Source: Okamejei kenojei
Lineage: Eukaryota
Direction of reading: 5' to 3'
DNA length: 64,000 nucleotides
Assembly: GCA_035221665.1 (NCBI GenBank)
Contig: CM069131.1
Span: 92,070,001 to 92,134,000, forward strand
Positions 10,566-42,129 of this stretch are shown in pieces. The notes beneath the pieces are model-generated. The model was not told the DNA's origin. It worked only from the letters and a program-made list of their open reading frames with translations, and searched no databases. The translations under genes were made by a program, and so were the position numbers. How positions within the stretch are numbered: the first letter of the stretch is position 1; each line of letters opens with the position of its first letter.

Positions 10566-12936
10566 CAGAGTAATATTGGTAGGGTCTCTTATCCTTATTC
10601 CAATATTTATTTGATTCAAACCCTCCTTTTATATAAATATATAAGAGAATAATATGACAATCTGCATTACAAAATTAAAACTAAACATTGACTGTTTAAT
10701 CTGAAGATGATGCATTCATACTCATCCTACATACTCTCTCATGAAACCCTGATAATGCATCTGCAATTGCATTTTGTTTAAAACTTCCATACTCAATTGT
10801 GCAATCTTATTGAGAGAAGAATTATCTTCCTTTGGAATGTCAATGCAGCCAAAGTGGGTTTTGCAGACTTGAGACCAGGAATTGGCAGACTTGTGTTCCG
10901 TGACTAAGATAAAAGATAAATGATTGATGAGACTTTTTCTCCCAAAAGCAATTTCTAATGCTGCTTTCTTAATTTGATTCTAAATATGTTTGTTCTTCAT
11001 CAATGTGCATATTGTATACTCACACATTTTATTCTTGACTGGTACCCATTATATGACAATTAACAGGTCCAACTCCATAGCTCCAAGCATCTCATGCAAA
11101 TTTCAATGAACATATTTTAAGAAAGTTAAACTGTCAAAGATTCACTTCCAAATTCCTCAAATACCTTTTGGTATTCTTTGTTCCAATTCCATTTTGCGTC
11201 TTTCTGACAGGACTGACAAAAACTTGGCATGTTATTGTACCATGCCCAAGAATGATCGACATTCTGAAATCTTTTCAGGTCTTGTTGCCAGTACACTTTT
11301 GTTTATTTCCTGATTGATTGCAATCCTTTTGCATCTAATTTGGTCTTGATAAACTGCCAGTTTTTCTATAGATGCACATTTCGTTTGAATTCACGTACAA
11401 CATGATATTTGCTTGAATATTCAAGCCTTTTCTGCTTTAACACTGCTAGTGATTGATACATTATCATAGATTCACATGCAAATACAATGTACTATGTTTA
11501 CATATTCTGTTGTGCTGCTGCAAGTAAGAATAAAAATTGTTCTATCCAGGTCATATGACGATAAAACATTATTGACTCTTGACTCTTAATGGCTAGCTAG
11601 TGGTTCTTTGAGATTGCAAATTCAAGGCAGAAAATACACCTTCTGCAATGAGTGTTAGCATGAGATTTCAACCCCAATGCATTGTAGCATGGAAGTAAGC
11701 AAAGGGCAGGAGGTTAGGTGCAGATGGATCCATCCTCCTGTGCACACCCTGGATACTGAATTCAAAGGTAGTTTATAATGTGCTCTGGTGAGGACTGCAT
11801 TGCTTTGTTTGTATCTGGCCTCTTAGTTTTATCTTAATAGGGCATCATTCATTTGAATGGGGTTACTCACTGACATTCACCACAAAGGCAAGTGAAAGAG
11901 TGAAGATTTTTGATTCCACTCTCATATGATTAATCCCAATGTGAATAATTTGAATGAGGTTGTATATTTATATTAATATTATTAATTTGTTAATTGTTAT
12001 GAAGGTTATATTTTTGAATTATTTAAATATTACTCCACTGTTTCCTAATGTTTCTTTTCAACAGAAACATTAGAAAAGTGCTTCGCATGGCAGAGAAATT
12101 AAACAAGTACTTTGTGATTCCAAAAGCATCTTGGAAATCTTAGACAATTAAGGAGAGTGAAGGAGTGAAGATTTTATTTTCACTCTCATTTGATTAATCC
12201 CAATGTGTTTAATTTGAGTGTGGTTGTACATGACATTAATATTATTATAATATTAAAAGCTTCTTAAATGCCAATAGGGTACCACATTAGAGGCTTACCA
12301 GCAAAACGGTAGCACATTGTATAAAAGGGACATAGATAGTCTGGGTACAAAGTTGGTGAAGTAACAGATGGTCGTGGTGAATGATTGTTTCTCAGATTGG
12401 TGGAAAGTGAATAGTCATTAGGATTTCCCAAAGATAAACCAGCAATCTGATTTCTAAATTTGAGATTAAATTAAAACTCGACAGCAGTACTGTTACTGCA
12501 ACAAAAAAAGCAGCAGGATATTAAAAGGGTGCTGGAATAGGCAAACATGCACACAAGGTTTAGGACTGTAGAATTACTTTGATAGAGTGAACAAAGAAAG
12601 GCAATACAAAGTCAAAAAAGAATTGCAGGAGCAGAGGAATCAGTGGATGTGGGTCAGGCACGTGCTGTGAGTGATTACCACCCTGACGGCACATGCCGTG
12701 AACAATTACTCAAGGTAAGCAGTCAATCGGCTTTAAAAAAATCTTAAACCGCACATGCGCAGATTGTTCTCCTCTCCGTAAATATAAAAATAACAATTCA
12801 ATTTGCCCAAGGCTTCCAAATCTCCTTCATTCTGAATTACTGAATGGGTGGGGGGTGGAGGGCGAGGGCAGGTGGAGAGAAGATGGGAACAACGGGATCA
12901 CACCGGGACAAGTTGAATCAGTTGCGAATCAGTGCG

Positions 12937-14993
12937 AATCTGGCACCAGATCCAAGCAGCTAAGAAGGACAAGAGAGACCTACATGTGATCTTCCTCGAT
13001 CTGGCCAATGCATTTGGTTCAGTTCCCCATGAACTCCTTTGGGAATCTTTTGCCTTTTTCCATGTACCAGAGCTCATCACCACACTGGTCAAGAACAATT
13101 TCCAAGACCTGCAGCTGTGCTTCACAACAGCTGAATTCAGTACAACATGGCAGCGCTTGGAAGTAGGCATCATGGCAGGCTGCACAGTCTCACCCTTGGC
13201 CTTTACAATGGCCATGGAAGTCATCATCAGGGCCTCAGAATGGGTGGTGGGCGGTGAACGAACCAGTGCTGGGCTCCGTCTGCCACCCATCAGGGCATAC
13301 ATGGACGACATGACAACAATAACCACTACTGCAGCATGCACCAAGCGGCTACTTGGAAAGCTGCAGGAGAACATCAAGTGGGCCCGAATGAAAATCAAAC
13401 CAAGTAAGTCTCGAAGCATCTCCATAGTTAAGGGGGTGCTTAGAGACACAAGGTTCTGCATCGGTGACGACCTAATACCAACAGTGTCTGAGCAGCCAGT
13501 AAAAAGCCTGGGCAGATGGTACAACGCAAGTCTCAAGGACAAAGAGCAGATGCAACAACTAAGGCAAGAAATTGTCAACGGCCTGGAGAACATCAATCAG
13601 ACCCTACTGCCTGGGAAGCTGAAGCTCTGGTGCCTACAGTTTGGACTCCTTCCTCGGACAATGTGGCCACTGACCGTTTATGAAGCCCCAATAACAACTA
13701 CGGAGAAGATGGAGCGAACCATAACTTCATACGCGAAGAAATGGCTTGGTGTCCCACAATGTCTAACTAACATCGGCCTCTATGGCAAAGGGGTCCTGGA
13801 ACTACCTCTCACTAGTCTAACAGAGGAATACAAGTGTTCCAAAGTAAGACTCCAGATGACACTAAGGGAGTCTAGAGACAACACCATCAGTGCTGTTGCG
13901 CCGCCCCTAGTAACTGGCCGGAAGTGGACACCATCTGATGCAGTACAGCAAGCTTCATCAGCCCTGAGGCACAGAGACGTCGTGGGGCAAGTGCAGCAGG
14001 GAAGAGGAGGCTTTGGCCTTACGACAAGTAAACCAACTTGGCAAAAGGCCACAACATCAGAGCGGAGGACATTGGTGGTTGAGGAGGTGCGGCGACAGGA
14101 GGAGGCCGCAAGAAGTGCAAAGGCGGTCTCTCTTGCCAAACAGGGGCAATGGATGCAGTGGGAAGGTGTGGAGCGGAGGAAGATCAGCTGGAAAGAACTA
14201 TGGGAAATGGAATCAAGCAAGATCAGCTTCATCATCAGAGCGACATACGACATCCTTCCATCACCAAAGAACCTCAATCAGTGGTACGGCGAGGATCCAA
14301 CCTGTGCCCTCTGCCCAACTCCAGCGACCCTCAAACACATCATGGTAGGCTGCAAGACCAGCCTCACACAAGGGAGATACACGTGGAGGCATAATCAGGT
14401 ATTTAAAAAGCCTGGCAACAGCCCTTGAGAACAGGCGGTGTGCGACCAACTCCTTGCCTCCGAGAGCAAGCAACCCCTCCCACTTAAGGGCGACAACCTT
14501 TGTCCGAGAAGGACAGAAAACACCTAAACATCCTTCCACCAGATCAGAAGAAGGAAACCTATGCAGGGCCCGTGACTGGAGGATGCTGGCGGACATCGGC
14601 CGACAACTAATCTTTCCACCTGAAATTGCTTCAACCAACCTCAGGCCAGATTTGGTGTTCTGGTCCCTTTCACAGAAGACTGCTTACATCATAGAGCTCG
14701 CAGTTCCATGGGAGAACTCTGTTGTGGAGGCCTTTGAGCGTAAGAAGCTGCGCTACACAGAGCTTGCAGCAGAGGCAACGCAGCGTGGCTGGAACACCAA
14801 GGTTTATCCAGTTGAAGTGGGATGCAGAGGATTTGTTGCGTCATCTACCATCAGACTGCTGAAGGAGCTTGGAATCCATGGTCAGGCTCTGCGGAAGACC
14901 ATAAGATCACTCTCAGACGCGGCTGAAAGAAGCAGCCGTTGGATTTGGCTCAAGCGGGAAGACCCATGCTGGGCCCCAAATACGTCATGGTGA
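12937..14993 (+). pseudogene. Hero RT-RLE polyprotein, one frameshift
   Basis: ORFs 12932-14428 and 14454-14993 join into one frame (RHNQVLKSLATALENRR) if one T is removed from TTT at 14402-14404. Confidence 0.88.
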
Positions 14994-24540: not shown

Positions 24541-25536
24541 CTAACTCGGGGAAACTATAACAGAACTCAAAACAGAGTCAGCAAACAACCCCAGTCTTGT
24601 AATCATCTTATGGTAAAACTTTTGGAAGGTCAGCTCACTGGACCATCCTGCAGCCGTGAGGATATTGTCTATAGGCATGTCCATCGCCCTTGCCGTGGAA
24701 GTTGATGCCGCCCAGGTGGAATGAGATTTTAATTTATCAGTATCAATCCCAGCACTTCCCAGAACCTGCTTTAGCCACCTTGAAATTGTTTGCACTGACA
24801 CCTTACTGTGTGTTTTTTTGTGGCTAATAAATAATGCAGACTCTGTTATTCATAGGGCTCTGGTGGCCTCAATGTAACAAGACATATGTGATACTACACA
24901 CAGGCGAGCATCTGTGGGGTATGCTGAAAACACAATCTTACATCCTGTCATGCCCATTGTACTATGTTTAAGCAAATCATGGACATGAAAAGTGATAGCA
25001 TCTGCCGATTCCCGCATTCTGTCTAGCCGTAGCTTTTGCAATGTTTGCACACGTCGGGCTGATACCAACGCCGTAAGCATGACCATCTTCATGGTTAGTT
25101 TGGCTAGAGATAGGCTTGCAACAGGAGCCCACTGGCGAAGAAGTATAAGAACTCCACTCACATTCCAAATACCGGCATATCTGGGTTTAGGAGGATTAGA
25201 ATTGAAAACTCCCTTCATAAATTGAGAAACTAATGGATGTGTCCCTACTGAATGTAACTCTGAATTCATGGGTAAATAAGAAGACAAAGCACTTCGGGCT
25301 GTATTGATCGCACTATAGCTTAATTTTTTATCAAAATAAAGAGTGGACAAGAACTCCAATACGTCTGGGATGCCTGCAGTCTGATATGAGATATTCTGCT
25401 GTAGACAGAATTCCTTCCACTTCCTTATCGAGGTGATGTACTGCTTCTGAGTACAATCCCTGCAGGCCGACATGAGAACATCCACGGTATGATCAGACAG
25501 TCCTCTCCCCAGGTATGGCCTCCTTAAAATCTGCAA
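24541..25536 (-). pseudogene. DIRS tyrosine recombinase (disrupted)
   Basis: SYSAINTARSALS, ARRVQTL, KSHSTWAAST (HSTR decayed), AAGWSSELTFQKFY; stop near 24850. Confidence 0.9.
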
Positions 25537-27660
25537 ATTAACAGATCAATACAATCATGTAAAGGATGTTGATCGCCAGTTACTGGATTTACCAGTAGCT
25601 TTTTATGCTTGGGAATAATCATGTAAGGCTGACTAGCCATTTGTAATACGAGAGGAAACCATGGTTGTGTAGGCCAATCCGGCACTACCAATACTCCTGA
25701 AGTGGAGTATTGCTTGATCTTTTGCAAGCATCTACAGATGAGACAGAATGGAGGAAATGCATAAACAAACATTCCACCCCAATGCAGCGAGAATGCATCC
25801 ACCGCTGCTGCACCAGGATCTGGTTCCCATGAAGCATATCTGGGCAACTGATAGAAACGTAGAAACATAGAAAATAGGTGCAGTAGGCCATTTGGCCCTT
25901 CGAGCCTGTACCACCATTCAATATGATCATGGCTGATCATCCAACTCAGTATCCTGTACCTGCCTTCTCTCCATACCCCCTGATCCCTTTAGCCACAAGG
26001 GCCACATCTAACTCCCTCTTAAATGTAGCCAATGAACTACCTTCTGTGGCAGAGAATTCCAGAGACTCACCACTGATGGTTTAGTCTAGATGCAAAGAAG
26101 TCGATATCTGACATTCCATACTGAGCAATCACTTGATTAAATATGTCCTGATTTAACATCCATTCTATGTTATCATTGAATTGGCGTGACCTAATGTCAG
26201 CTACTGTGTTTAATCTACCTGCTAAATATATTGCTGAAAGCCAGATATTTTGGTCAATGCACCAGCTCCAGATCGGATTAGCCAGTCTATCACAAGACTG
26301 TGACTTGACTCCACCCATGTGGTTTACATATGCCACTGCTGTAGTGTTGTTAATCTGAACCTGCACATGCAAGTCCCTCCTGGCAGAGCAATAAGCTTTA
26401 AGCCCATACCAAGTTCCCAACAGCTCTAAATAATTGATCCCTCTTAATTGAAGAAGGGATGTCTCATCAGTATTCCATCTGCCTCCACAAATGGAAGACA
26501 TATCTGTAGCACCCCAACCCAGCGCACTTACATCAGTCTGTAATATTATGGAAGGTGATTCCACCGAAACCTTCCTAGAAATTTTTGAAACATTTATAAT
26601 CCACCATTGAATGTTGGAAATTGCCACAGCTGACAATTGCATAGGCCTATCAAAATTGCTCACTTGTGTCCTTAGTGCCTGTTCTTTTGTTGGTTGTAAT
26701 TGTTGATAATGCAGAGGTCCATACTGCATAGCTGGAAAAGCAGCCACCAATTTACCAATTAAACTGACTACTTGTCTAATTGAAGGCCATTGTTCTCTAA
26801 TGAGATTAACACAATCCTTAATTAACTGTTGCAATCTGTCCCTAGGCAAAGTTACCAACATGTGATTTGAATTAATGGTAAATCCCAAATAATCAATGAT
26901 TTGAACTGGTGATAATTTGGATTTATCTGGATGAATGACAAACCCTAATTGTTCAAAAGTGAGTTTAACAATTGAAACAGATGACTCAGCTACAGCACGA
27001 GTCTTTCCAACAATTAAAATATCATCTAGGTAGGCCATTACCACATGCTCCTGAGCTCGGGGTAATGCTAGAACAGGTTTTAACAATTTAGTAAATAGTC
27101 TAGGAGCTGAAGTTAACCCATTAGGCAGTGCTTTGAACTGAGTCATCCAGATACATTTCAAATACCTCCTATCATCACTATGAATAGACACTGAATAATA
27201 TGCATCCTTTAAATCAATGCTGGCCCTATAACACCCTTTGGAAACAAGATGTTTGGCCGTGGAAAAAGTTTCCATTTTGAAATGCCTATAGCAAACAAAT
27301 AAGTTCAAACTCGTCAGATCCAAAATAGTTCTACATCCCCCAGTCGTTTTAGACCTAGGAAAAATACTTGACACAAACTGACGACTTTGACAAACTGACT
27401 TCTCAATCACCCCTTTCTTGTGTAATTCATTAATTTCTGCCTGTATGAGCACATTTTCTTCTTCTGAAAATATAAGTTTCCGACTTGGAACATGCCGATT
27501 AGGTGGACACACAGTACAGTAAAATTCAATTTGTACCCCTTCAATACTGTTAAGTATAAATGAATCTGATGTTATCTCCTGCCATATTTGAGAAACAAAT
27601 GTAATCTTCCCCCAATTTGAACATCTATTTTACTTGATTCATTCTCTTTAAGAGGCATTT
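25524..27660 (-). pseudogene. DIRS RT - RNase H - methyltransferase-like ORF, interrupted by CR1
   Basis: IDLKDAYY, LPNGLTSAP, AYLDDIL, TD.S..GWG, INYLEL, DFFASRLNHQ|LPRYASW..DAF..W..YAFPPF. Confidence 0.92.
25853..26071 (-). mobile_element. CR1 3' end inserted in the DIRS MT domain
   Basis: ACTGAT duplicated at 25847-25852 and 26072-26077; removing the insert restores NHQLPRY. Confidence 0.9.
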
Positions 27661-27748
27661 TTCCCACCTGCATACGTCCTTGGCCCCGGCCCTTTGTAGA
27701 AAAAGTTGTCCTTCCCTTCACACCAATGGCAGGCTGCCAGTTTCGATA

Positions 27749-28858
27749 CTACAGACCTGAATGGCTGGTTCCTTCCCCTGCGTCCGAACTGGTACCCCGC
27801 CGGTAAGGGAAATTCCTCTTCCCTTGTTTGCCACCCGGCTTAATGAGGCCCATTGTTTTAGCGTCCTCATGACACTCTTTGACTCGCTTGGCGAGATCTC
27901 CTCCAAATAAAAGATTGGGTGGTTGTACGCTGGGCGGCTTGCGCAAAGAAGCCAGATTGGGATTGATAATTGGCCTTATAGCGCTTCTTCTAATATTATT
28001 GATCTCGAAATAAGCACTACAGAGGAGTCCCAGTGCATCTTGATGGGCTTCTGACATATGCCCTTTATTTACTGTAACGGCAAATGCCGTAAGCCCTGCT
28101 GAAAGTAGTGTTAGTACCTTCTGAAATTTTAATTCTTGAGCTCTGGCTGACATCCCCAACTGTGTTCAGATCAGATGGTTTACCATTGGTACTTTAAGTA
28201 AACCGCAATTGATAGGGGCTTCATATTTTTTAGCCGCCTAATCCATGGCCAATTCCTGCAGTTGGTGAGAGAGCATATATTGTATAGCTGAAGCCAATTC
28301 ATCCCTTAACGGCTCTCCTGCCTCTCTCAGCGCTGCAACTTTTTCTGCAATATTAGGGATAATTTCCAGCTCCACTCCCTTATGGCACTCCTCCACCACT
28401 GTTTCGGCATCAGCAAACTGCACCGGTATAATTTCCTCCTCAAAGGTAGGATATTCTTGCAGCCCTGTTACAGGTGCTACGAGCACAGGCTCTCCACTAG
28501 CCTGGCGTGGGCACCACTCCTCCGCACGGAGTTTGTCCCTGTCAAGCATTTTTTGCAATAAAATCTCGACTTGGGAGAGCCGTGAGCAAACAGTCTCTCC
28601 TTTTGAGGCTACAACCTCCAGGCCCGACTCTGGGTCCACGGGCCTATTTGATTTTCCAGTAGCCTTACGCCCTGCTGGCATGGCTACGCTCACAGGCAGC
28701 GGGTCCGGTGTCGCTAGCTCCATAGCTGGCGTCGGACTTGGTGTGCTAAACGGGCCGCCACTAACAATGCTATCCTGGTCATCGACCCTTTTTGCTGCGG
28801 AGTGCCTCGCCGACACCTTCTTCACTTTCTGTAACATCACTAAACGGAGTATCGACAA
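27749..28858 (-). pseudogene. DIRS ORF1 (gag-like), disrupted
   Basis: Position upstream of RT; homologous to the first DIRS copy; probable ATG at 28835-28837 (MLQKVKKVSAR). Confidence 0.75.
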
Positions 28859-29334
28859 CCACTGCTACAGAAAATGAACACTGAAAAAGTTTGAAAACTT
28901 ACCTTCCTTTTTAAACTTACCGCTTGGAGGAGCTCTGCTGCTCCAACCGGCCGACTACAGCAAAGCGTCTGACGTAATGACGCACCAACGGCTGTACGGG
29001 GTTCTTCACATAGTCACTCATATGACTCCAAAGTAAAATAGTGTGCTTGTTGCACTCAATATCCAAACAAAGTGTATTTGGGACCCAGGTTTAGATTTAG
29101 GTTTGTCATTGTAAAGTGTACTGAGGTACCGTGACAAGCTTTTGTTTACATGCTGTCCAATCAAATCAGAAAATACCATCAGTAAATACAATGAAGACAA
29201 ACACCAGTAATATAGAGCAAAGGGTAAAGGTACTGAATGCAGAAAGCATTTTCCCAGCATTAAAGCACAACAGAGCCAAACTTCAATATCCGCAGGGAGA
29301 GGAGAATCGGACAGTACCTTACCTTAGAGGAAAC

Positions 29335-31699: not shown

Positions 31700-33866
31700 A
31701 AATGTGTGAATTGCGACACTTTGTTTTATGGGAAGGATGTAGAAGAGAAATGGAGGACATTTAAAGGGGAAATTGTAAGAGTACAGAATCTTTATGTCCC
31801 TGTTAGGTTGAAAGGAAATAGGAAAAATTGGAAAGAACCATGGTTTTCAAGGGAAATTGGACACTTTTTCGAAAAAAGAGAGATATCTACAATAATTATA
31901 GGAGGCATGGAGTAAATGAGGTGCTAGAGGAGTATAAAGAATGTAAAAAGAATCTTAAGAAATAAATTAGGAAGGCTAAAAGAAGATATGAGGTTGCTTT
32001 GGAAAGAAAGGTGAAAGTAAATCTAAAGGGTTTCTACAGCTATATTAATAGCAAAAGGATAACGAAGGGATAAAATTGGACCATTAGAGAGCCAGAATGG
32101 ACAGCTATCTGCAGAGCCAAAATAGATTGGGGAGATATTGAACAATTTCTTTTCTTCTTCGGTATTCACCAAGGAGAAGGATATTGAACTCTGTGAGGTA
32201 AGGGAAAAAAGTAGAGTAGCTATGGAAACTATGAGATTCAAAGAGGAGGAAGTACTGACACTTTTGAAAAATATAAAAGTGGATAAATCTCCAGGTCCTG
32301 ACAGGATATTCCCTAGGACATTGAGGGAAGTTAGTGTAGAAATAGCAGGAGCTATGACAGAAATATTTCAGATGTCATTAGAAACGGGAATAGTGCCGGA
32401 GGATTGGCGTACTGCGCATGTTGTTCCATTGTTTAAAAAGGGTTCAAAGAATAAACCTAGCAATTATAGACCTGTTAGTTTGACATTAGTGGTGGGCAAA
32501 TTAATGGAAAGGATACTTAGAGATAATATATATAAGCATCTGGATAAACAGGGTCTGATCAGGAACAGTCAACATGGATTTGTGCCTGGAAGGTCATGTT
32601 TGACAAACCTTCTTGAATTTTTTGAAGCGGTTACTAGGGAAATTGATGAGGGTAAAACAGTGGATGTTGTCTATATGGATTTCAGTAAGGCCTTTGACAA
32701 GGTTCCCCATGGAAGGTTGGTTAAGAAGGTTCAATCTTTGGGTGTTAATGGCGGAGTAGCAAGATGGATTCAAAAGTGGCTGAAATGGGATATGTCAGAG
32801 AGTAATGGTGGATGGCTTTAAAGTTTGTCAGTTGGAGCGAGCCGGTGACCAGTGGGGTGCCTCAGGGATCTGTGTTGGGTCCACTGTTGTTTGTCATGTA
32901 CATCAATGATCTGGATGATGGGGTGGAAAATTGGATACGTATATGCAGATGATACTAAGATAGGTGGCGTTGTGGATAATGAAGTAGATTTTCAAAGTTG
33001 AGAGAGAGTTGGGCCATTTGGAAAAGTGGGCTGAAAGATGGCAGACGGTGTTTAATGCTGATAAGTGTGAAGTGCTACACCTTGGCAGGACAAATCAAAA
33101 TAGGACGTACATGGTAAATGGTAGGGAATTGAGGAATGCTGTGGAACAGAGAGATCTAGGAATAACTGTGCATAGTTCCCTGAAGGTGGAATCGCATCTA
33201 GATATGAGTGGTAAAGAAAGCCTTTGGTGTGCTGGCCTTTATAAATCAGAGCATTGAATATAGGAGTAGGGAAGTAATGTTAAAACTGTACAAGGCATTG
33301 GTAAGACCAATTCTGGAGTATGGTGTACAATTTTGGTCGCCTAATTATAGGAAGGATGTCAACAAAATAGAGAGAGTACAGAGGAGATTTACTAGAATGT
33401 TGCCTGGGTTCCAGCAACTAAGTTACAGAGAAAGGTTGAACAAGTTAGGTCTTTATTCTTTGGAGCGCAGAAGGTTAAGGGGGGACTTGATTGAGGTCTT
33501 TAAAATGATGAAAGGGATAGACAGAGTTGAGGTGGATAAGCTTTTCCCATTGAGGGTAGGGAAGATTCAAACAAGAGGGCATGACATGAGAATTAAGGGA
33601 CAGAAGTTTAGGGGTAACATGAGGGGGAACTTCTTTACTCAGAGAGTGGTGGCTGTGTGGAATGAGCTTCCAGCAGAAGTGGTGGCGGCAGGATCGATTT
33701 TAACGTTTAAAAGTAAAGTGGATAGGTATATGGACGGGAAGGGAATGGAGGGGTATGGTCTGAGTGCAGCTAGATGGGACAAGGGGAAAACAAATTGTCG
33801 GCACGGACTGGAAGGGCCGAGAGGGCCTGTTTCCGTGCTGTAATTGTTATGTGGTTATATGGTTAT
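31700..33866 (+). mobile_element. CR1/HER1 LINE, 5'-truncated ORF2 with frameshifted RT
   Basis: [61 protein letters not shown]; (TTATATGG) tail. Confidence 0.93.
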
Positions 33867-33956: not shown

Positions 33957-36000
33957 GTGTGCTGCCTCTGTCTATTGCTGACATCCGTGCGGGCAAACCC
34001 GGCCTCCCTCCTCACCATGGTGACCGGAAGTTCTATTTGTACTTACGGAGTCTGCACCATCTCCATCAACTTCGGCCACGGCTGCTTTTCGTGGGAATTT
34101 GTCATCGCCGACATTTCCCAGCCGCTGCTGGGCGCCAATTTCCTTTGAGCACATTCACTCCTCGTGGATGTCAAGTGGCATTGCCTGGTGCACTCCATCA
34201 TGCTGGAGCATGTCTCCGTCCGCGTTGCTGACCTGGTTGCACGCCCTGATGGTCCCGTCATCCGTGGGTGCGACTTTTGCGCACATCCTGGCGGATTTCC
34301 CGGACATCCTCGAACCCCACTTCTGCTCCTCCGCCCCCAAGCACGGGGTGAAGGACCATATTCTGACTACAGGCCCACCCGTGCATAACCGGGCATGTCG
34401 TCTCGCGCCGGACAAGCTCCGTCTAGCTCGGGAGGAGATCCGCCTGTTGTAGCCCATGGGCGTCACCGCTCCACATGGTCTCCAAAGCAATAGGGGGCTG
34501 GCACCCGTGTTGGGATTACTGTCATCTGAATGATGCGACTGTTGCCGACAGATACCCGGTCCCGCACTTTCAGGACTTGTTGAATGCCCATCTGGCCGGA
34601 GCATTGGTGTTCTCCAAGGTGGACCTCGTGCGAGGGTAGAACCAGATTCCAGTTCACCCCAATGATATCCCTAACGCAGCTATTATTACACCGTTTGGGC
34701 TGTTTGCAGATGTTATCTGGGTTGAAGAATGCCGCACAGGCCTACCAGCAGCTTATGGTCTGTGTGTGCCGTGGCCTGGACGTCTACTTGGATGACATAC
34801 TCATGGCCAGCCGCACGCGGCAGGAGCACTGCATCCACCTCTGTCAGCTGTGTCAGCGCCTCAGCGATTACGGGTTGGCTATCAGCTTGTCCAAGTGTCG
34901 TTTTGGGGTGACGCCCATCGACTGCCTCGGCCACCACGTAACTCCACAAGGGGTGGGACCTCTGCCGGCCAGGGTGGACGCTGTCCGCCGGTACCCCCGT
35001 CCGACCACACTGGATCGCCCGGTTCGGGGTGCTGCTGAACATGGGGCCTCAGTTTACGTCGGAACTGTGGTCGGCCATGGCCTGAGTTTTGCTTACACCA
35101 CACTATGGCATATCATCTGCAGATGAATGGCCTGGTGGAGTGATTTCACCGCCAACTCTAGGCTTCCCTGAAGCACGGCTCACTGATCCGGACTGGGTAG
35201 ATGCTCCGCCATGGGTTTTGCTGGGGATCCACACCGCACCCAAAGTGGACTTGGCCTCCTCCTCCGCCGAGTTGGTGTATGGCTCTCCGTTGACGGTGCC
35301 CGGGGAGTTCAGTCTACTGGCACAGGGCCCGATGGAGCAGCCTTCGGATGCCCTGCAACATCTTCGGCAGTCGGTGGGCAAGCTGGCGCCGGTGCACACG
35401 TCACGTCATGGGTCTTTCCGTCCGCACGTTTCCTCTGCTCTGGAGGACTGCCAGTTCGTCTTCCTGTGTCGGGATGCTCATTGGGCACCCCTCCAGTGAC
35501 TGTAACATGGCTCGTCCACTTTCATCCTGGACATGGGGGGTCGGCGCGAGACAGTTTTGGTTGCGCGGCTGAAGCCGGCGCATGTTGACATTGATCGGCC
35601 GGTGATGGTCGCGTGGCCCCGGATGCGAGGGTGCCCTCCATTTAGGGTACCTCCTCCAGTGGCTACTCCATCCCCTGCACCTGTTGGTCGATTGGCGGTT
35701 GCTGTGCAGGGCACAGTGCTTACCCGGCTTGGTCGCCACATGCACCCTCCTGTCTGTTTTGTGCCTCCGGTTCTTGGGGGGGGGGGGTGTGCTGTGGCGG
35801 TCCCTGGATATTAGGCCACTCCTTAGGTCATCCCCCTCGGCTCTTGAGGGACAGGGACTGCAGTCGGCCCACGGGGTATCCTGGTTTCTGTTCGGGGGTT
35901 TATCTGGTGTACTATCATGCTTCATTAAAGAACTTCTGAACCTGCCTGGCCTCTAGCCTTTTCCTGACCTTGACCAGGCTACCAGAGCATCCTGAAATCA
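33957..36000 (+). mobile_element. Degraded Gypsy LTR element: pol remnants, PPT and 3' LTR (about 35788-36000)
   Basis: PLLGANFL, DRYPVP, VYLDDILMAS and WVLLGIHTAPK peptides; poly-G PPT then TGT...CA with ATTAAA. Confidence 0.8.
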
Positions 36001-36912: not shown

Positions 36913-37400
36913 TAAGGGCCTGTCCCACTAACGCGACTTTTCAGCGACTGTCTTTGACCTTCAAGCTCAAGGGCACTCACCTGAANNNNNNNNNNNNNNN
37001 NNNNNNNNNNNNNNNNNNNNNNNNNNNNNNNNNNNNNNNNNNNNNNNNNNNNNNNNNNNNNNNNNNNNNNNNNNNNNNNNNNNNNNNNNNNNNNNNNNNN
37101 NNNNNNNNNNNNNNNNNNNNCAGGGAAAACGGGCGAGCTCTGTCTGAAATTCACACCCGCGATGAACAAGACGGCTGCCACAGTTAGGGTAAGTCCTTTA
37201 GAGTGTAGGGGGGGGGGGGGGTGGTGGGAGAGAAGGGGGAAGAAGGGGGGAGGTGGGGGAGAAGGAGTGAAGACACTTTTAAGAAGCCAGATTAATAACA
37301 TTACGACCTACTATGACCTACCTCGACTAAACCTATGAGTAAAGAAAATCGATTTTCTCCATGCCAACCTTTTTTACTCTCAGGCATTTTTCAGCTTGAA
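36913..37400. mobile_element. PIF/Harbinger-like MITE fragment spanning the gap
   Basis: TAAGGGCCTGTCCCACT terminus; opposite end not found. Confidence 0.45.
36986..37120. other. Assembly gap (135 N)
   Basis: Run of N. Confidence 1.
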
Positions 37401-37880
37401 CATTCACCACAGTGGAATCAACATTCTTCACTGTGGTGGAAGGCAATAACGTTCAGTCAGCCCTCCTCCTTTGTTCATCCGTGGTCAGGGCCATGAACCC
37501 TCCACAGTCACCACTATGGACAGCCCGATGTACCGGCCCTCTCATTGGAATGCTCAAAACTCCGACATCAGGACGGGCGGACACTCCACGGCTTGGAGGT
37601 CCCGAATCAGTCGCTTCCTACCGGAGACCGTGGCCTCATGATATTATAGGCTGCAGGCTGGCAGTCGGAACTCTTCTCTGGTGATCCCCGGTGAGGGTTC
37701 CCAGACTCCGCGATGGAAGCTTCTCCCGCCCAAGTTGCGGGACTGAAAACGACCCGGAGCGGGGCCTGACATCGCCTGGCGCGGCTTTAACGGCCGATGG
37801 ACTTGTCATCGCCCGCCGGGGGCTCCAACATTAAGTCCCGGAGCAGGGCCTTACATCGCCGGAGCGATGTAAGGCCCGAT
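37400..37880 (-). mobile_element. Unclassified GC-rich non-autonomous retroposon (same family as 57200-57662)
   Basis: CACAGTG..CACTGTGGTGG hairpin shared with 57490-57530 in opposite orientation; internal short repeats. Confidence 0.5.
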
Positions 37881-38071
37881 AGTAATTGTAGATGGTTTAT
37901 ATATACAACCAATAATATAGCTACCTCAGTTAACATCAATCATAACGCCTTCCCCTCCCTGGGTACAGTTCAGTAGAAGAATGTAGCCAGTGCTTGATGA
38001 TGTATGTAATACCCTGTGCTATCATTAAAAGATGTTGCACACTTTAAGAGTTTGTGAATTGCTTATTTACA

Positions 38072-38108
38072 TGGTGTCAGAAGTCGGATTCGAACCCACG
38101 CCTCCATA
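38072..38108 (+). promoter_or_regulatory. Extended PBS: 37 nt complementary to the tRNA-Leu 3' end
   Basis: TGGTGTCAGAAGTCGGATTCGAACCCACGCCTCCATA is the reverse complement of CCA, acceptor stem, T-arm and part of the variable arm of vertebrate tRNA-Leu(CAA) as I recall it, with 1 mismatch. Confidence 0.85.
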
Positions 38109-39219
38109 GGCATGCAGAGTAGCATTGTCAGCAATCAGGGACTCATTATTCCTTATCTTGTTGAAAAGATTTATTGACAAAACGTTGACCTTCGCACCAG
38201 TGTCTAACTTTGCAAGGAAGGTTACGTCATTGACAGTCACAGATATGGTGGGATCAGAACGTTGGCCAGGTGCATGTAGGAGGGTAAACACACTCGAATC
38301 CTCGGGAGAATTAATTGGATCTGCATCATAGGATTCAGCTATGTTGGGCTGTGAGCCGTAACAGCCATCAGATTGTCTCAGCATGTTTAAATTTGGTCTG
38401 GACATCTGTACCGGTCTCCCACGGGAACGACAGGCGGCAAAGAAATGATTCAGTTTTTTACAAAAGTTACAGGCCTTGCCATAGGCAGGGCACGTCGACA
38501 GTCTGTGGTGCATGTAGTTATAGCTTGGGCACCTTTTTGGGGGCACTTCACCAGGACCTGGGTTGGCATGCGGCAGAAAAGCAATGTTTCCCATCCGAGG
38601 CTGTGGTCTCCTAAACCCAGACAGGTTAATAGATTTATTGTCCGAATCACGGTGGTCATTTAGCAATACAACGACCTCAGACAATCTGCAGGCATGCATG
38701 GCTTTTTCTAACGTTAGATTCCAATCCCTTAGAAGCTCACATCGCAGCTTCTGGTCACGCATGCCAGTTACTAAAATGTCTCTAGTGAGCTGGTCTGTCA
38801 TGTCACCAAAACAGCACCGCTGGGCGAGATAACACAAATCAGCGATAAAACATTCAACAGGTTCATCTGGCAACTGTTTCCTTGAAAAGAACCATGCCCT
38901 CTCTAGAATGCGGTTCGAGGGCAGGTCACAAATCTCCCTGAACGTACGTAGCAGGCAAGCGGGGTCACTATCAGATTCTGCAGGAGTAGTCACCACGTTG
39001 TTGTCATCCAGGACCGCTGGAGCGTAGGTGGAAGTTCTGGCTCTCTTCATGGCATCAGGTCCGACAAGGTTGAGTAGGAGGGAAGCTTTAAGGGAGTCAG
39101 GATCAGCGTGGTGTGCGACGTTGACAAAGTGGGTGAAATCAAATTCAAACGTGGCCCAGCGCTCAGAGATGTCAGCATCAAAGACAAGCTGCGCGGGCTT
39201 TCTGCAAGAGGACGCCATG
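38101..39219 (-). CDS. Gypsy (Mag-type) gag-protease, inverted relative to the LTRs
   Basis: Open frame; RKQLPDEPV.., two zinc knuckles (CPAYGKACNFCKKLNHFFAAC), protease LDTGAKVNVL and LHAYGG. Confidence 0.88.
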
Positions 39220-39319
39220 GTCAGAGAGATTAAGCACAAATAGCACAAATCAAAAGAAAGAAAGAAATCCCGATAGACAGGAGACGCAGGTATCTTCCAG
39301 CTTCGACACCATGTAATTA

Positions 39320-40825
39320 CGAAACAGAGGACTTGCTCGTACTGTGTGTTGACTTTATTCCCACCAAGCAGTTACAGCCTTTGGCTGAGCACACCGCTGC
39401 CGATCCAGTTTTGCAGCGGCTTGCCGCTGTGATTAAATCAGGGTGGCCAACAAAGCGCTCCAGCGCGCCGTCTGAAGCACAGCCTTTCTTCCTGGTCCGC
39501 GACGAACTGGTGCTCCAGAATGACGTTAACGTCAAGGGACATAAAGTTGCAGTCCCGTCCTCCCTGTTTGACTTTTACTATTGCTCAGCTTGTTTGACTT
39601 TTACTATTGCCTAGCGGACACCCTGGGGTCGATGCAACACTCGCCCATCGCTCAGTGCCAATTCTACTGGCCTGGAATGGCCAAATATATCCAAGACAGA
39701 GTTTCTGCCTGTTCCACGTGCAACAGTCTTGCTCCACACCAGCAGCGACAACCCCTGCTGCAACAGCCCACCCCTGCCTTGGCCTGGTCCTCGTTGGCTG
39801 CCGACATCTTCGAGTGGCGTGGCAACCACTGCCTTGTCCTGGTCGACTCGTACTCAAACTGGTTCGAAGTGGATTTACTGACAACCCTCACGTCGGAGAT
39901 GGTGATCCGAAAGCTGCGGAAACACTTCTCCACTTTTGGGTCCCGTGTCCGGCTGCAGACTGACAACAGCAGGCAGTTTACCAGCCGAGAGTTCAAATGT
40001 TTTGCAGACAAATGGAATTTTGTGCATTTCACCAGCAGCCCAGAGTACCCACAGAGCAACGGCCTTGCTGAATGGGCCATCTGCAGAACCGCGCTTCTGA
40101 TGGAACAGGCGAGACGGTCCAACTCTGATTTGTATTTGGATCTCCTGAACCTCAGGAATGTTTCCAGGGATCCGGCCATGGGGTCACCTGCTCAGCGTCT
40201 GATGTCCAGAACAACCAGATCTACCATCCCGATTGCTCAGCACCAGCTTCAACCTCGGGTGCTGGAGCCTGCCTCCGTGCAGAGGCGCATTCAAGAGAAA
40301 CATGACAGCCAGCGGCGTTCCCACAATCGGTTGTGCAGACCACTCGATCCTCTGTTGCCTGGACAGATTGTTCGGTTGCAGACCGCCGGTGGTCACTCCC
40401 GTCTGGCTACCGTGGTTGGGGTGGCCGACTCACCTCGTTCGTACCTGGTCGACTATGAGGGAACTATCTACCGAAGAAGCCGACAACACCTGCTTGCGGT
40501 TAATGAGCCGAAGCCGCAGCCCCCGGGGCCCTATGCTCCGCCACTCTCATACCAGCTGCCGGCTGCCGTCCCAGCCAGTGTTCCCTGCATGCCTCGGTCC
40601 CCATCTCGAGCGCCCTGTTCCTCTCTGCGCGGGTCACCTGTTGCCGGTCGCGGTTCTCACTCTCCTGCTTCTCCCACCCCACCGCCCTTCCCTGGTTCCC
40701 CAGCTGCTTTGCGTCCTCCTGTTTTTCTGCTCTTTCGGGGGAAGGGGGAGACATCCGTACGCGCTCGGGCCGGATTAGTAAGCCACCTGTTCGTTATGGC
40801 GATTTTGTTTAATTCTGCTGTTTAA
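39320..40825 (+). pseudogene. Gypsy integrase (with frameshifts)
   Basis: ADPVLQ..GWP, YWPGM..CSTC, ADIFEW, VDSYSNWFE, TDNSRQF, YPQSNGLAE. Confidence 0.9.
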
Positions 40826-41204
40826 TTCTGTTGTTGTGACCAATCTGTTTTGATTTTCTAAGGGGAAGGATGTAGATGGCTTATATATGCAACCAATAAT
40901 ATAGCTACCTCAGTACCATTAACCCCGCCTAGTTAACATCAATCATAACGCCTTCCCCTCTCTGGGTACAGTTCAGTAGAAGAATGTAGCCAGTGCTTGA
41001 TGATGTATGTAATACCCTGTGCTATCATTAAAAGATGTTGCACACTTTAAGAGTTTGTGAATTGCTTATTTACAGTAATCACAATGGTTCTCCCCATCAA
41101 CTCCTCCTTATTAATGGCCAACAAGCTTGCCTCATTGATGGTTGCTGAGCAAAAGTGGAAGTGAGGGTTTGGGGTTTGAAGAAGGTTCTACCTGCTGTTA
41201 CGTG

Positions 41205-41840
41205 TCATGGCTATCATATTATAGGTGTCATATTATGTGTATCATATTATGTGTGTGATATTCCGTGTGTCATATTATGGCTATCATATTGTAGGTATAT
41301 TATAGTTATATTATGGGTATCATATTATTGATATATTATGGGTAGCATATTGCGGGTATATTATGGGAATGGTATCATTGATATATAACCATATAACATA
41401 ACAATTACAGCACGGAAACAGGCCCTCTCGGCCCTTCCAGTCCGTGCCGACCATTTGTTTTCCCCTAGTCCCATCTACCTGCACTCAGACCATACCCCTC
41501 CATTCCCTTCACGTCCATATACCTATCCACTTTACTCTTAAATGTTAAAATCGATCCTGCCTCCACCACCTATATTATAGGAATCATATCATGAATATCA
41601 TATTATCATATGGTCATAAGGAATAGGATTAGAATTAGGCCATTCAGCCCATCAAATCTACTCCGCCATTCAATCATGGCTGATCTATCTCTCTCTTCTA
41701 AACCCATATGGGTATAATGGGTATCATATTATGGGTTGTATATCATGGGTATCATATCATGGCTGTCATATTATGGCAATCATATCATGAATATCATATT
41801 ATGGGAAATATCATGGATATCATATTATGGATATCATATT
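41205..41840. repeat. AT-rich minisatellite (TATCATATTATGGG-like) interrupted by two minus-strand CR1 tails
   Basis: Degenerate ~14-bp units; CR1 tails at about 41382-41570 and 41612-41706. Confidence 0.75.
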
Positions 41841-42129
41841 ACAGGACTTCAGTTATATTGCCTTTGCCAATTTCTGGAGCTCTGAGATCAAATCAGCGCT
41901 GCATAATAGTTGATGCCACCAGATGCCTACTCTGCATACTTTCATATTTGCAGACGTCATAAGTCAAATTAGGTAATACTTGTGCTGAAAATTGTGGGCA
42001 AATTTGCACAACACACAATCTCCCAGCCCTGATATTCTTCAGCATTTAGCTTATAAATCATTTCTGCATTTTATTGTCTCAATTGGGAAAAAGGCAAGAT
42101 GTCTCTTTGCAAACGTATTTGTCTACCAA

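Follow-up and report, generated by a model that had tools for sequence, protein, structure and literature searches.

Deletions that arise by faulty strong-stop transfer beside the primer-binding site (PBS) of retroviral vectors, some of them with tRNA sequence, were reportedly described by Pulsinelli and Temin in 1991 with a single-round vector assay. In HIV-1, 44 proviruses have been found to carry 7 to 54 nt of tRNA-Lys3 beyond nucleotide 18 of the primer at a deletion junction, with a change at the A58 position in 5 of the 44 (Hardy et al. 2025, PMC12657518, accessible text). Loss of m1A58 lets the reverse transcriptase (RT) run on into the tRNA, as stated in the available portions of a 2021 study (PMC8599865) and of a review (PMC13191261). 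For Ty1 and Ty3, tRNA-tailed strong-stop DNA is described as being displaced and accumulating as a dead end (PMC5371799, available in part), and because this DNA is displaced a loose tRNA-tailed primer exists in the Ty1/Ty3 group. Complex LTR insertions formed by template switching, in which the rearranged cDNA is inserted as one unit, are known from plant LTR elements (Sabot and Schulman 2007, PMC1950507, available in part), and inversions are present in a few HIV proviruses, with no link to tRNA in the available passages of that work (PMC9278108).

Here we describe an element in the window, the whole 64-kb stretch of DNA that was analyzed, in which a retroelement read-through error has likely been fixed in an animal germline, together with an added inversion.

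Architecture and classification of the element

The coordinates that an earlier note on this DNA had given are confirmed, as are the LTRs, the polypurine tract (PPT) and the target-site duplication (TSD) that it had called intact; all features are collected in Table 1. The LTRs are direct repeats with TG...CA ends and the TSD is 5 bp, within the 4 to 6 bp of Ty3/Gypsy elements; as in these, a tRNA PBS stands behind the 5' LTR and a PPT ahead of the 3' LTR. The two LTRs differ by 3 transitions and one 19-nt indel, giving a distance of 0.0165 (95% interval about 0.003 to 0.047). The domain order protease-RT-RNase H-integrase is seen by way of a little-skate polyprotein relative, P0001, in which protease, RT and RNase H are followed by the linker that precedes the integrase of the element. 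The RT of P0001 has 4ol8 and 7q5b as its best two PDB matches (E about 1e-66), including a chain of Ty3-G Gag-Pol, and the Ty3-type RT assignment is that of P0001, the element itself having no RT. Given this domain order in P0001, and with Ty3 Gag-Pol among the closest proteins of known structure, the element is classified as a defective Ty3/Gypsy copy. The named relatives point to a cartilaginous fish as the probable host. The element may belong to the Mag-type clade of Ty3/Gypsy, for which the tRNA-Leu primer and the cysteine pattern are suggestive; that clade is recognized by placement in an RT-based tree, a tRNA-Leu primer and tandem zinc knuckles.

Table 1. Coordinates of the element and of metagenome loci with tRNA-Leu tails
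Feature	Position or loci	Strand	Source
Whole element, TG...CA LTR ends	37887-41074		window
Left TSD, GTAAT	37882-37886		window
5' LTR, 185 nt, TG...CA; without 19 nt found in the 3' LTR	37887-38071	+	window
First PBS, complement of tRNA-Leu-CAA nt 76-59, single mismatch at 38085	38072-38089	+	window
Putative read-through present in the tRNA only; begins opposite A58, crosses the T arm and enters the variable arm	38090-38100	+	window
Joint 1, 8 nt that match the variable arm of the tRNA as well as the Y-G-G codons of the protease	38101-38108		window
Inverted gag and N-terminal half of protease, open frame	38103-39218	-	window
Inverted 5' leader	39219-39300	-	window
Second PBS, inverted; tRNA-end match of 7 + 4 nt with a one-base gap	39301-39311	-	window
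Last 5 nt of U5; joint 2 at 39316/39317	39312-39316	-	window
RNase H-integrase linker and integrase	39317-40825	+	window
PPT	40860-40870	+	window
3' LTR, 204 nt, TG...CA	40871-41074	+	window
Right TSD, GTAAT	41075-41079		window
Families with CA end and tRNA-Leu tail	L020, L023, L036; L006, L019 (= L080); L083 (= L105, L108), L107		eukaryote-type metagenome DNA

From 38101 to 39316 the sequence is inverted; this block comprises, in this order, the N-terminal protease half, gag, the leader, another PBS and 5 nt of U5, in agreement with the earlier description of an inverted protease-gag ending at 39301-39316 in a reversed PBS and 5 nt of LTR end. Its minus-strand gag-protease frame is 55% identical to P0001 over 381 amino acids, and the match stops at A-Y-G-G. 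The plus strand picks up at the residue aligned to position 948 of P0001, past RNase H; the alignment thereby confirms that the plus strand resumes before the integrase and that RT is absent, as had been read from the sequence. Missing are about 517 residues (P0001 431-947, about 1.55 kb), which comprise the rest of the protease, RT and RNase H. Near 39565-39650, a 26-nt tandem duplication and a change of frame interrupt the linker-integrase region. With the linker peptide as query, one search yielded no homolog and the representative search did yield homologs.

Elsewhere in the window, 24850-28864 on the minus strand carries an RT frame and a frame with a phage-integrase-like SAM domain, which we take to be a DIRS-type element, probably. 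RT-bearing frames are also present at 12917-14993, 32126-33843 and 34584-35126, all on the plus strand, the first two being of non-LTR type by appearance. The left flank (37700-37886) is a high-copy repeat in sequencing runs X1, X4 and X7 and closes with a 14-bp hairpin (37846-37877) immediately upstream of the TSD; an assembly gap of 135 N (36986-37120) lies about 770 nt upstream of the element, and degenerate AT-rich tandem repeats of 11 to 14 nt (41174-41864) lie just to its right.

The tRNA-Leu segment and the two joints

Behind the 5' LTR, 36 of 37 nt (38072-38108) equal the complement of the last 37 nt of tRNA-Leu-CAA-2-1 (the reference being human, from the sequence table of PMC10359600), and the matching ends there; the match is in register with the LTR end and includes the complement of CCA. 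A 37-nt tRNA-Leu complement, about twice the usual length, had been claimed before and is borne out, the one mismatch at 38085 having been overlooked. Nucleotides 1 to 18 of the segment make up a full-length PBS, nucleotides 19 to 29 are found in the tRNA only, and nucleotides 30 to 37 are common to the tRNA and the protease codons. Chance continuation over the 11 tRNA-only letters past the 18-nt stop (38090-38100) has a probability of 2.4e-7, and the correct base sits opposite A58. The mismatch, at nucleotide 14 of the PBS, is a transversion and counts against faithful copying of the tRNA. At the equivalent position the tRNA-type base stands in 123 of the 123 listed metagenome matches with 24 nt of upstream context (three loci with short context left out), and judged by these matches the deviating base is specific to this copy. 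The next two letters of the window continue in just 2 of the 123 listed metagenome matches, neither of them in a tRNA gene. The 37-mer folds into weak, uninformative structure. Two Rfam matches to snoRNAs (E 4.8 and 8.4) were rejected as chance.

At joint 1 the segment runs into the inverted protease, and the end of the P0001 match agrees with the claim that the overlap fits both the tRNA and the Y-G-G codons. The overlap is 8 nt by human CAA-2-1, 7 nt by the tRNA-Leu-CAA probe of PMC7997516 and 6 nt by a tRNA-like contig in run X4. Because these CAA-type sequences differ, we put the overlap at 6 to 8 nt and the length that would derive from the tRNA at 35 to 37 nt, both by CAA-type references. 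For a random joint, P = 0.0018 for at least 6 letters in common and P = 0.0002 for at least 8. Even if the host tRNA is without the full 8-nt segment, the read-through reading stands, the overlap merely dropping to 6 to 7 nt. Taking all orders of the jumps and descent from a copy with such an event together, it is very probable that read-through by RT is at the origin of this segment.

Joint 2 retains exactly 5 nt of U5, next to a second PBS that is short in its tRNA match, as in the short-PBS family. The element reads C-N-Y-E where its two closest relatives, P0001 (57%) and P0010 (73%), read H-P-Y-E; for this reason, and since just 5 nt of U5 are kept, the overlap would be about 0 to 1 nt unless the subfamily of the element differs, an estimate that uses relatives of just these identities. 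The second jump was probably not driven by microhomology. Of the mechanism put forward in the earlier note, read-through past nucleotide 18, a microhomology jump, copying to U5, a second jump and insertion by integrase are retained; joint 2 itself shows little or no microhomology. In vitro, ends that overlap by 2 nt are joined by retroviral RTs, for which untemplated additions can also serve; the clamp activity requires C or G within the overlap (PMC3035444, accessible part), and an A/T-only joint may be without one. Autointegration was ruled out, as joint 2 cuts 5 nt inside U5 and not at the LTR end. The letters GTAAT at 39313-39317, the same as the TSD, are treated as a coincidence.

The microhomology at joint 1 and the near-blunt joint 2 would also suit repair synthesis by the host after insertion, in which a break by the PBS invades a tRNA-Leu gene or cDNA and then, using microhomology, moves over to the element's other strand. 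Such repair is of the MMBIR or polymerase-theta type, and a tRNA gene could base-pair with the 15 nt of PBS that follow the complement of CCA. It would require the template to be switched three times and a tRNA gene to be located far away, ARAGORN having found none within the 64-kb window, whereas the RT primer is already attached at that very spot; we consider host repair very unlikely.

We propose instead that the element probably goes back to a single RNA and to one round of reverse transcription that went wrong. Minus-strand synthesis would stall 1,554 nt past the PPT, and strong-stop DNA, without a PBS acceptor, would run on through the primer tRNA. The tRNA-tailed strand would pair with the protease codons on the uncopied plus-sense RNA via the overlap of joint 1 and copy this RNA back to its trimmed 5' end at U5; the copied strand would then join the stalled minus strand, which gives joint 2, and the product would be integrated by an integrase-type insertion, with its TG/CA ends and 5-bp TSD. 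RNase H spares a few bases of U5 next to the PBS. The single stall would explain the deletion, the start of the inversion and its end at U5+5, and RT and RNase H would be missing because neither strand copied them. The joint 2 step is the weakest of this mechanism. The LTRs would be identical in a fresh product, and their 3 substitutions and 19-nt indel count against it in that later change is needed.

These LTR differences could also be accounted for by two RNAs, and Ty3 packages two (PMC5371799, in the portion available). In such an order joint 2 would form first: a finished minus strand from a second RNA would be joined end to end to the stalled minus strand, which would then copy that strand into plus-sense PBS-gag-protease and, through the 8-nt overlap, pair with the strong-stop DNA that had overshot, much as in a second-strand transfer to the wrong place. 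The read-through is the same and the final sequence identical, so that the order of the jumps cannot be read from the product. Two primed RNAs would be required, as would a pause or an invasion right at the codons of the protease, and the joints of LTR or PBS to antisense gag-protease in the family, described below, are explained less simply than by the single-RNA order; we regard the two-RNA order as unlikely.

Hypomodification of the primer, that is, absence of m1A58, is plausible because loss of m1A58 extends plus-strand synthesis (PMC8599865, PMC13191261, both in the portions available). The correct base opposite A58 fits an unmethylated A58 or a bypass of m1A58.

Related copies and metagenome loci

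Evidence on the family comes from 4 of 22 listed sequencing runs aligned to the window, namely the contig runs X1, X4 and X7 and the raw-read run X21. In all three contig runs, contigs pass from the LTR end through a short PBS into the leader. Contigs of related copies (record 3 of X1, record 11 of X4) align from exactly 38101, the preceding 40 letters being unaligned; therefore the 8-nt overlap is protease sequence and 38072-38100 is not. From these alignments and from the LTR-short PBS contigs, a long PBS is not the family norm, which counts against the concern that intact copies might already carry the 37-nt PBS. A strand-switch joint at 39316/41069, with 5 common letters in X1, X4 and X7, is expected from an ordinary junction of LTR, short PBS and leader.

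The same contigs bear on the idea that the event did not take place at this insertion, a long PBS being normal for the family or the element being a daughter of an earlier rearranged, non-autonomous copy. LTRs, full PBS and PPT remain, so that mobilization in trans would be possible, and a related inverted joint is present at about ten times the flank depth. Against this, contigs in each of the three contig runs pass from the LTR end to a short PBS and on to the leader, and the pieces listed carry no multi-copy sign of joint 1 or joint 2. We hold this to be highly improbable, and a daughter copy would record the identical read-through anyway.

No contig among the pieces listed spans joint 1 or joint 2, which neither supports nor refutes them. 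The 5' insertion edge is bridged in X1 (record 2), reaching 34 nt inside the LTR with 8 differences in 168; at the 3' edge, contigs of X1 and X7 with flank-level depth reach 22 and 27 letters into the LTR, fewer than the 31-letter rule demands, and X4 has no depth on the right flank. A chimera of assembly or library that joined a tRNA gene to an inverted and an integrase fragment would accord with these unspanned joints, with the N gap at 36986-37120 and with the finding that no run contains half of the sampled words (best 0.39). Assembly overlaps usually exceed the 8 and about 0 to 1 nt shared at the joints, which is too little for them; one TSD encloses the whole unit, and its edges are bridged or crossed as described, with the 3' edge below the rule. 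We give a chimera hardly any credence.

A further joint, 38082/38248, has a depth of 321 in X1 and 281 in X7, compared to 37 and 20 for the right-flank contigs (depth not being copy number). By mapping it has 2 common letters, owing to the mismatch in the window; the tRNA complement from locus L003 has 7 letters in common with the 38248 target, ending at PBS nucleotide 18, the normal stop. It would be in keeping with a strand that halted at the normal stop and then jumped to the protease region in plus sense; as a multi-copy family joint, it suggests that inversion came about in the same way there, after the usual stop at 18 nt. This joint is a single contig per run, with a short side of 21 to 22 nt and the flag 'between: not known'. 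Two other joints from LTR to antisense, 38021/38143 and 38065/38457 (X1, X7), have 6 common letters each. With short sides of 21 to 29 nt, the same flag and a likeness setting of 80%, the three antisense joints serve as leads, by which other family copies seem to link LTR or PBS to antisense gag-protease via 6 to 7 common letters.

In X1 and X7, a joint at 38090/39893 seemingly links the PBS to a far downstream site. The X4 joint 38106/38290 was rejected as a rearranged copy; we take it for a gene resembling tRNA-Leu whose second part matches by chance. The family is absent from the raw-read run X21, where the 3 reads that aligned have loose ends before 38075, as expected of a tRNA gene, and scans found no family DNA in viral contigs or in metagenome contigs.

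Scanning the metagenome with a 21-nt tRNA pattern, which detects tails of at least 35 nt only, gave at least 123 loci. The CCA complement is present in 16 of the 122 listed loci with enough upstream sequence, and 10 of these 16 follow a CA end (about 0.1 expected). Counted as distinct sites they are 7, spread over three repeat families whose tails measure about 35 to 53 nt, and a TG start is seen in two of the three families. That tRNA tails stand right behind CA-ending repeats at 10 of 122 listed loci, against about 0.1 expected, further argues against host repair at the element. The other 6 loci include L013, L121 and probable tRNA genes or pseudogenes, and no inverted element sequence follows the tail in any of the 16 (flanks of 300 to 700 nt).

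Several of these loci have features of their own. At L013 the tRNA-Leu tail runs into a same-sense RT frame, like the HIV deletion class, at L121 a second PBS follows the tail after about 135 nt, and L036 has two tails in tandem. In L083 (267-352) and L107 the tail returns to the 3' end of the repeat itself, with a TSD-like match of 4 of 5 letters, and looks like a tiny LTR-tRNA-U5 unit inserted by integrase. At L020 (447-774) a solo LTR-like repeat with a tRNA tail has a 51-nt host stretch on either side, the two copies being 96% identical, which resembles a one-ended insertion completed by host repair.

Comparison with known systems

Read-through as a class is not new, having been described in HIV proviruses; the inversion and the second joint are the difference. 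What we describe is a single dead copy with no shown function, and its core error is already described in HIV. On the proposed reading, a transcript past both known tRNA stops can be rescued and integrated via a plus-sense RNA jump that inverts gag-protease. If such copies are common, tRNA tail lengths would provide a readout, from assemblies, of RT stop sites on germline tRNA, and the copies themselves would offer a way for antisense copies to come about. As a tentative extension, which we regard as doubtful, displaced strong-stop DNA of tRNA-Leu-primed short-PBS Gypsy families might regularly re-prime on its own RNA and be integrated as LTR-driven antisense gag-protease copies; the tails (18 nt at the family joint, 37 here, about 35 to 53 in other eukaryotes) would then be a fossil map of RT stops, and inverted copies could seed small-RNA silencing of the family. 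Our literature search, with older and subscription papers mostly outside its range, found no read-through case in a retrotransposon and none that combines read-through with inversion, and the word 'inversion' is absent from the accessible main text of PMC12657518.

The strong-stop DNA of Ty1 and Ty3 (PMC5371799, portion available) resembles the present case in superfamily, in a short genomic PBS and in a free tRNA-tailed strand; in yeast, however, the tail stops after 12 nt and is not inherited, whereas here the tailed strand would have been rescued into an integrated copy. The complex insertions of Sabot and Schulman fuse two parent elements, and the abstract of that work mentions neither tRNA sequence nor inversion (PMC1950507). 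In the available portions of PMC8599865 and PMC13191261, read-through past position 54 is held unable to integrate, whereas here both stops appear to have been passed and the product integrated. The aberrant, delayed second-strand transfer of HIV-1 (PMC12657518, accessible text) has intact LTRs and PBS, tRNA past nucleotide 18 and an integrated product in common with the element, in which tRNA sequence beyond nucleotide 18 directly follows the PBS and ends at the rearrangement junction with both LTRs intact. The primer in HIV is tRNA-Lys3, as opposed to the tRNA-Leu of this Gypsy retrotransposon. Finally, in HIV the jump leads to a downstream site on minus-strand DNA and gives a same-sense deletion, whereas in this element antisense gag-protease follows the tRNA sequence, pointing to a plus-sense jump that yields an inversion and a second joint.
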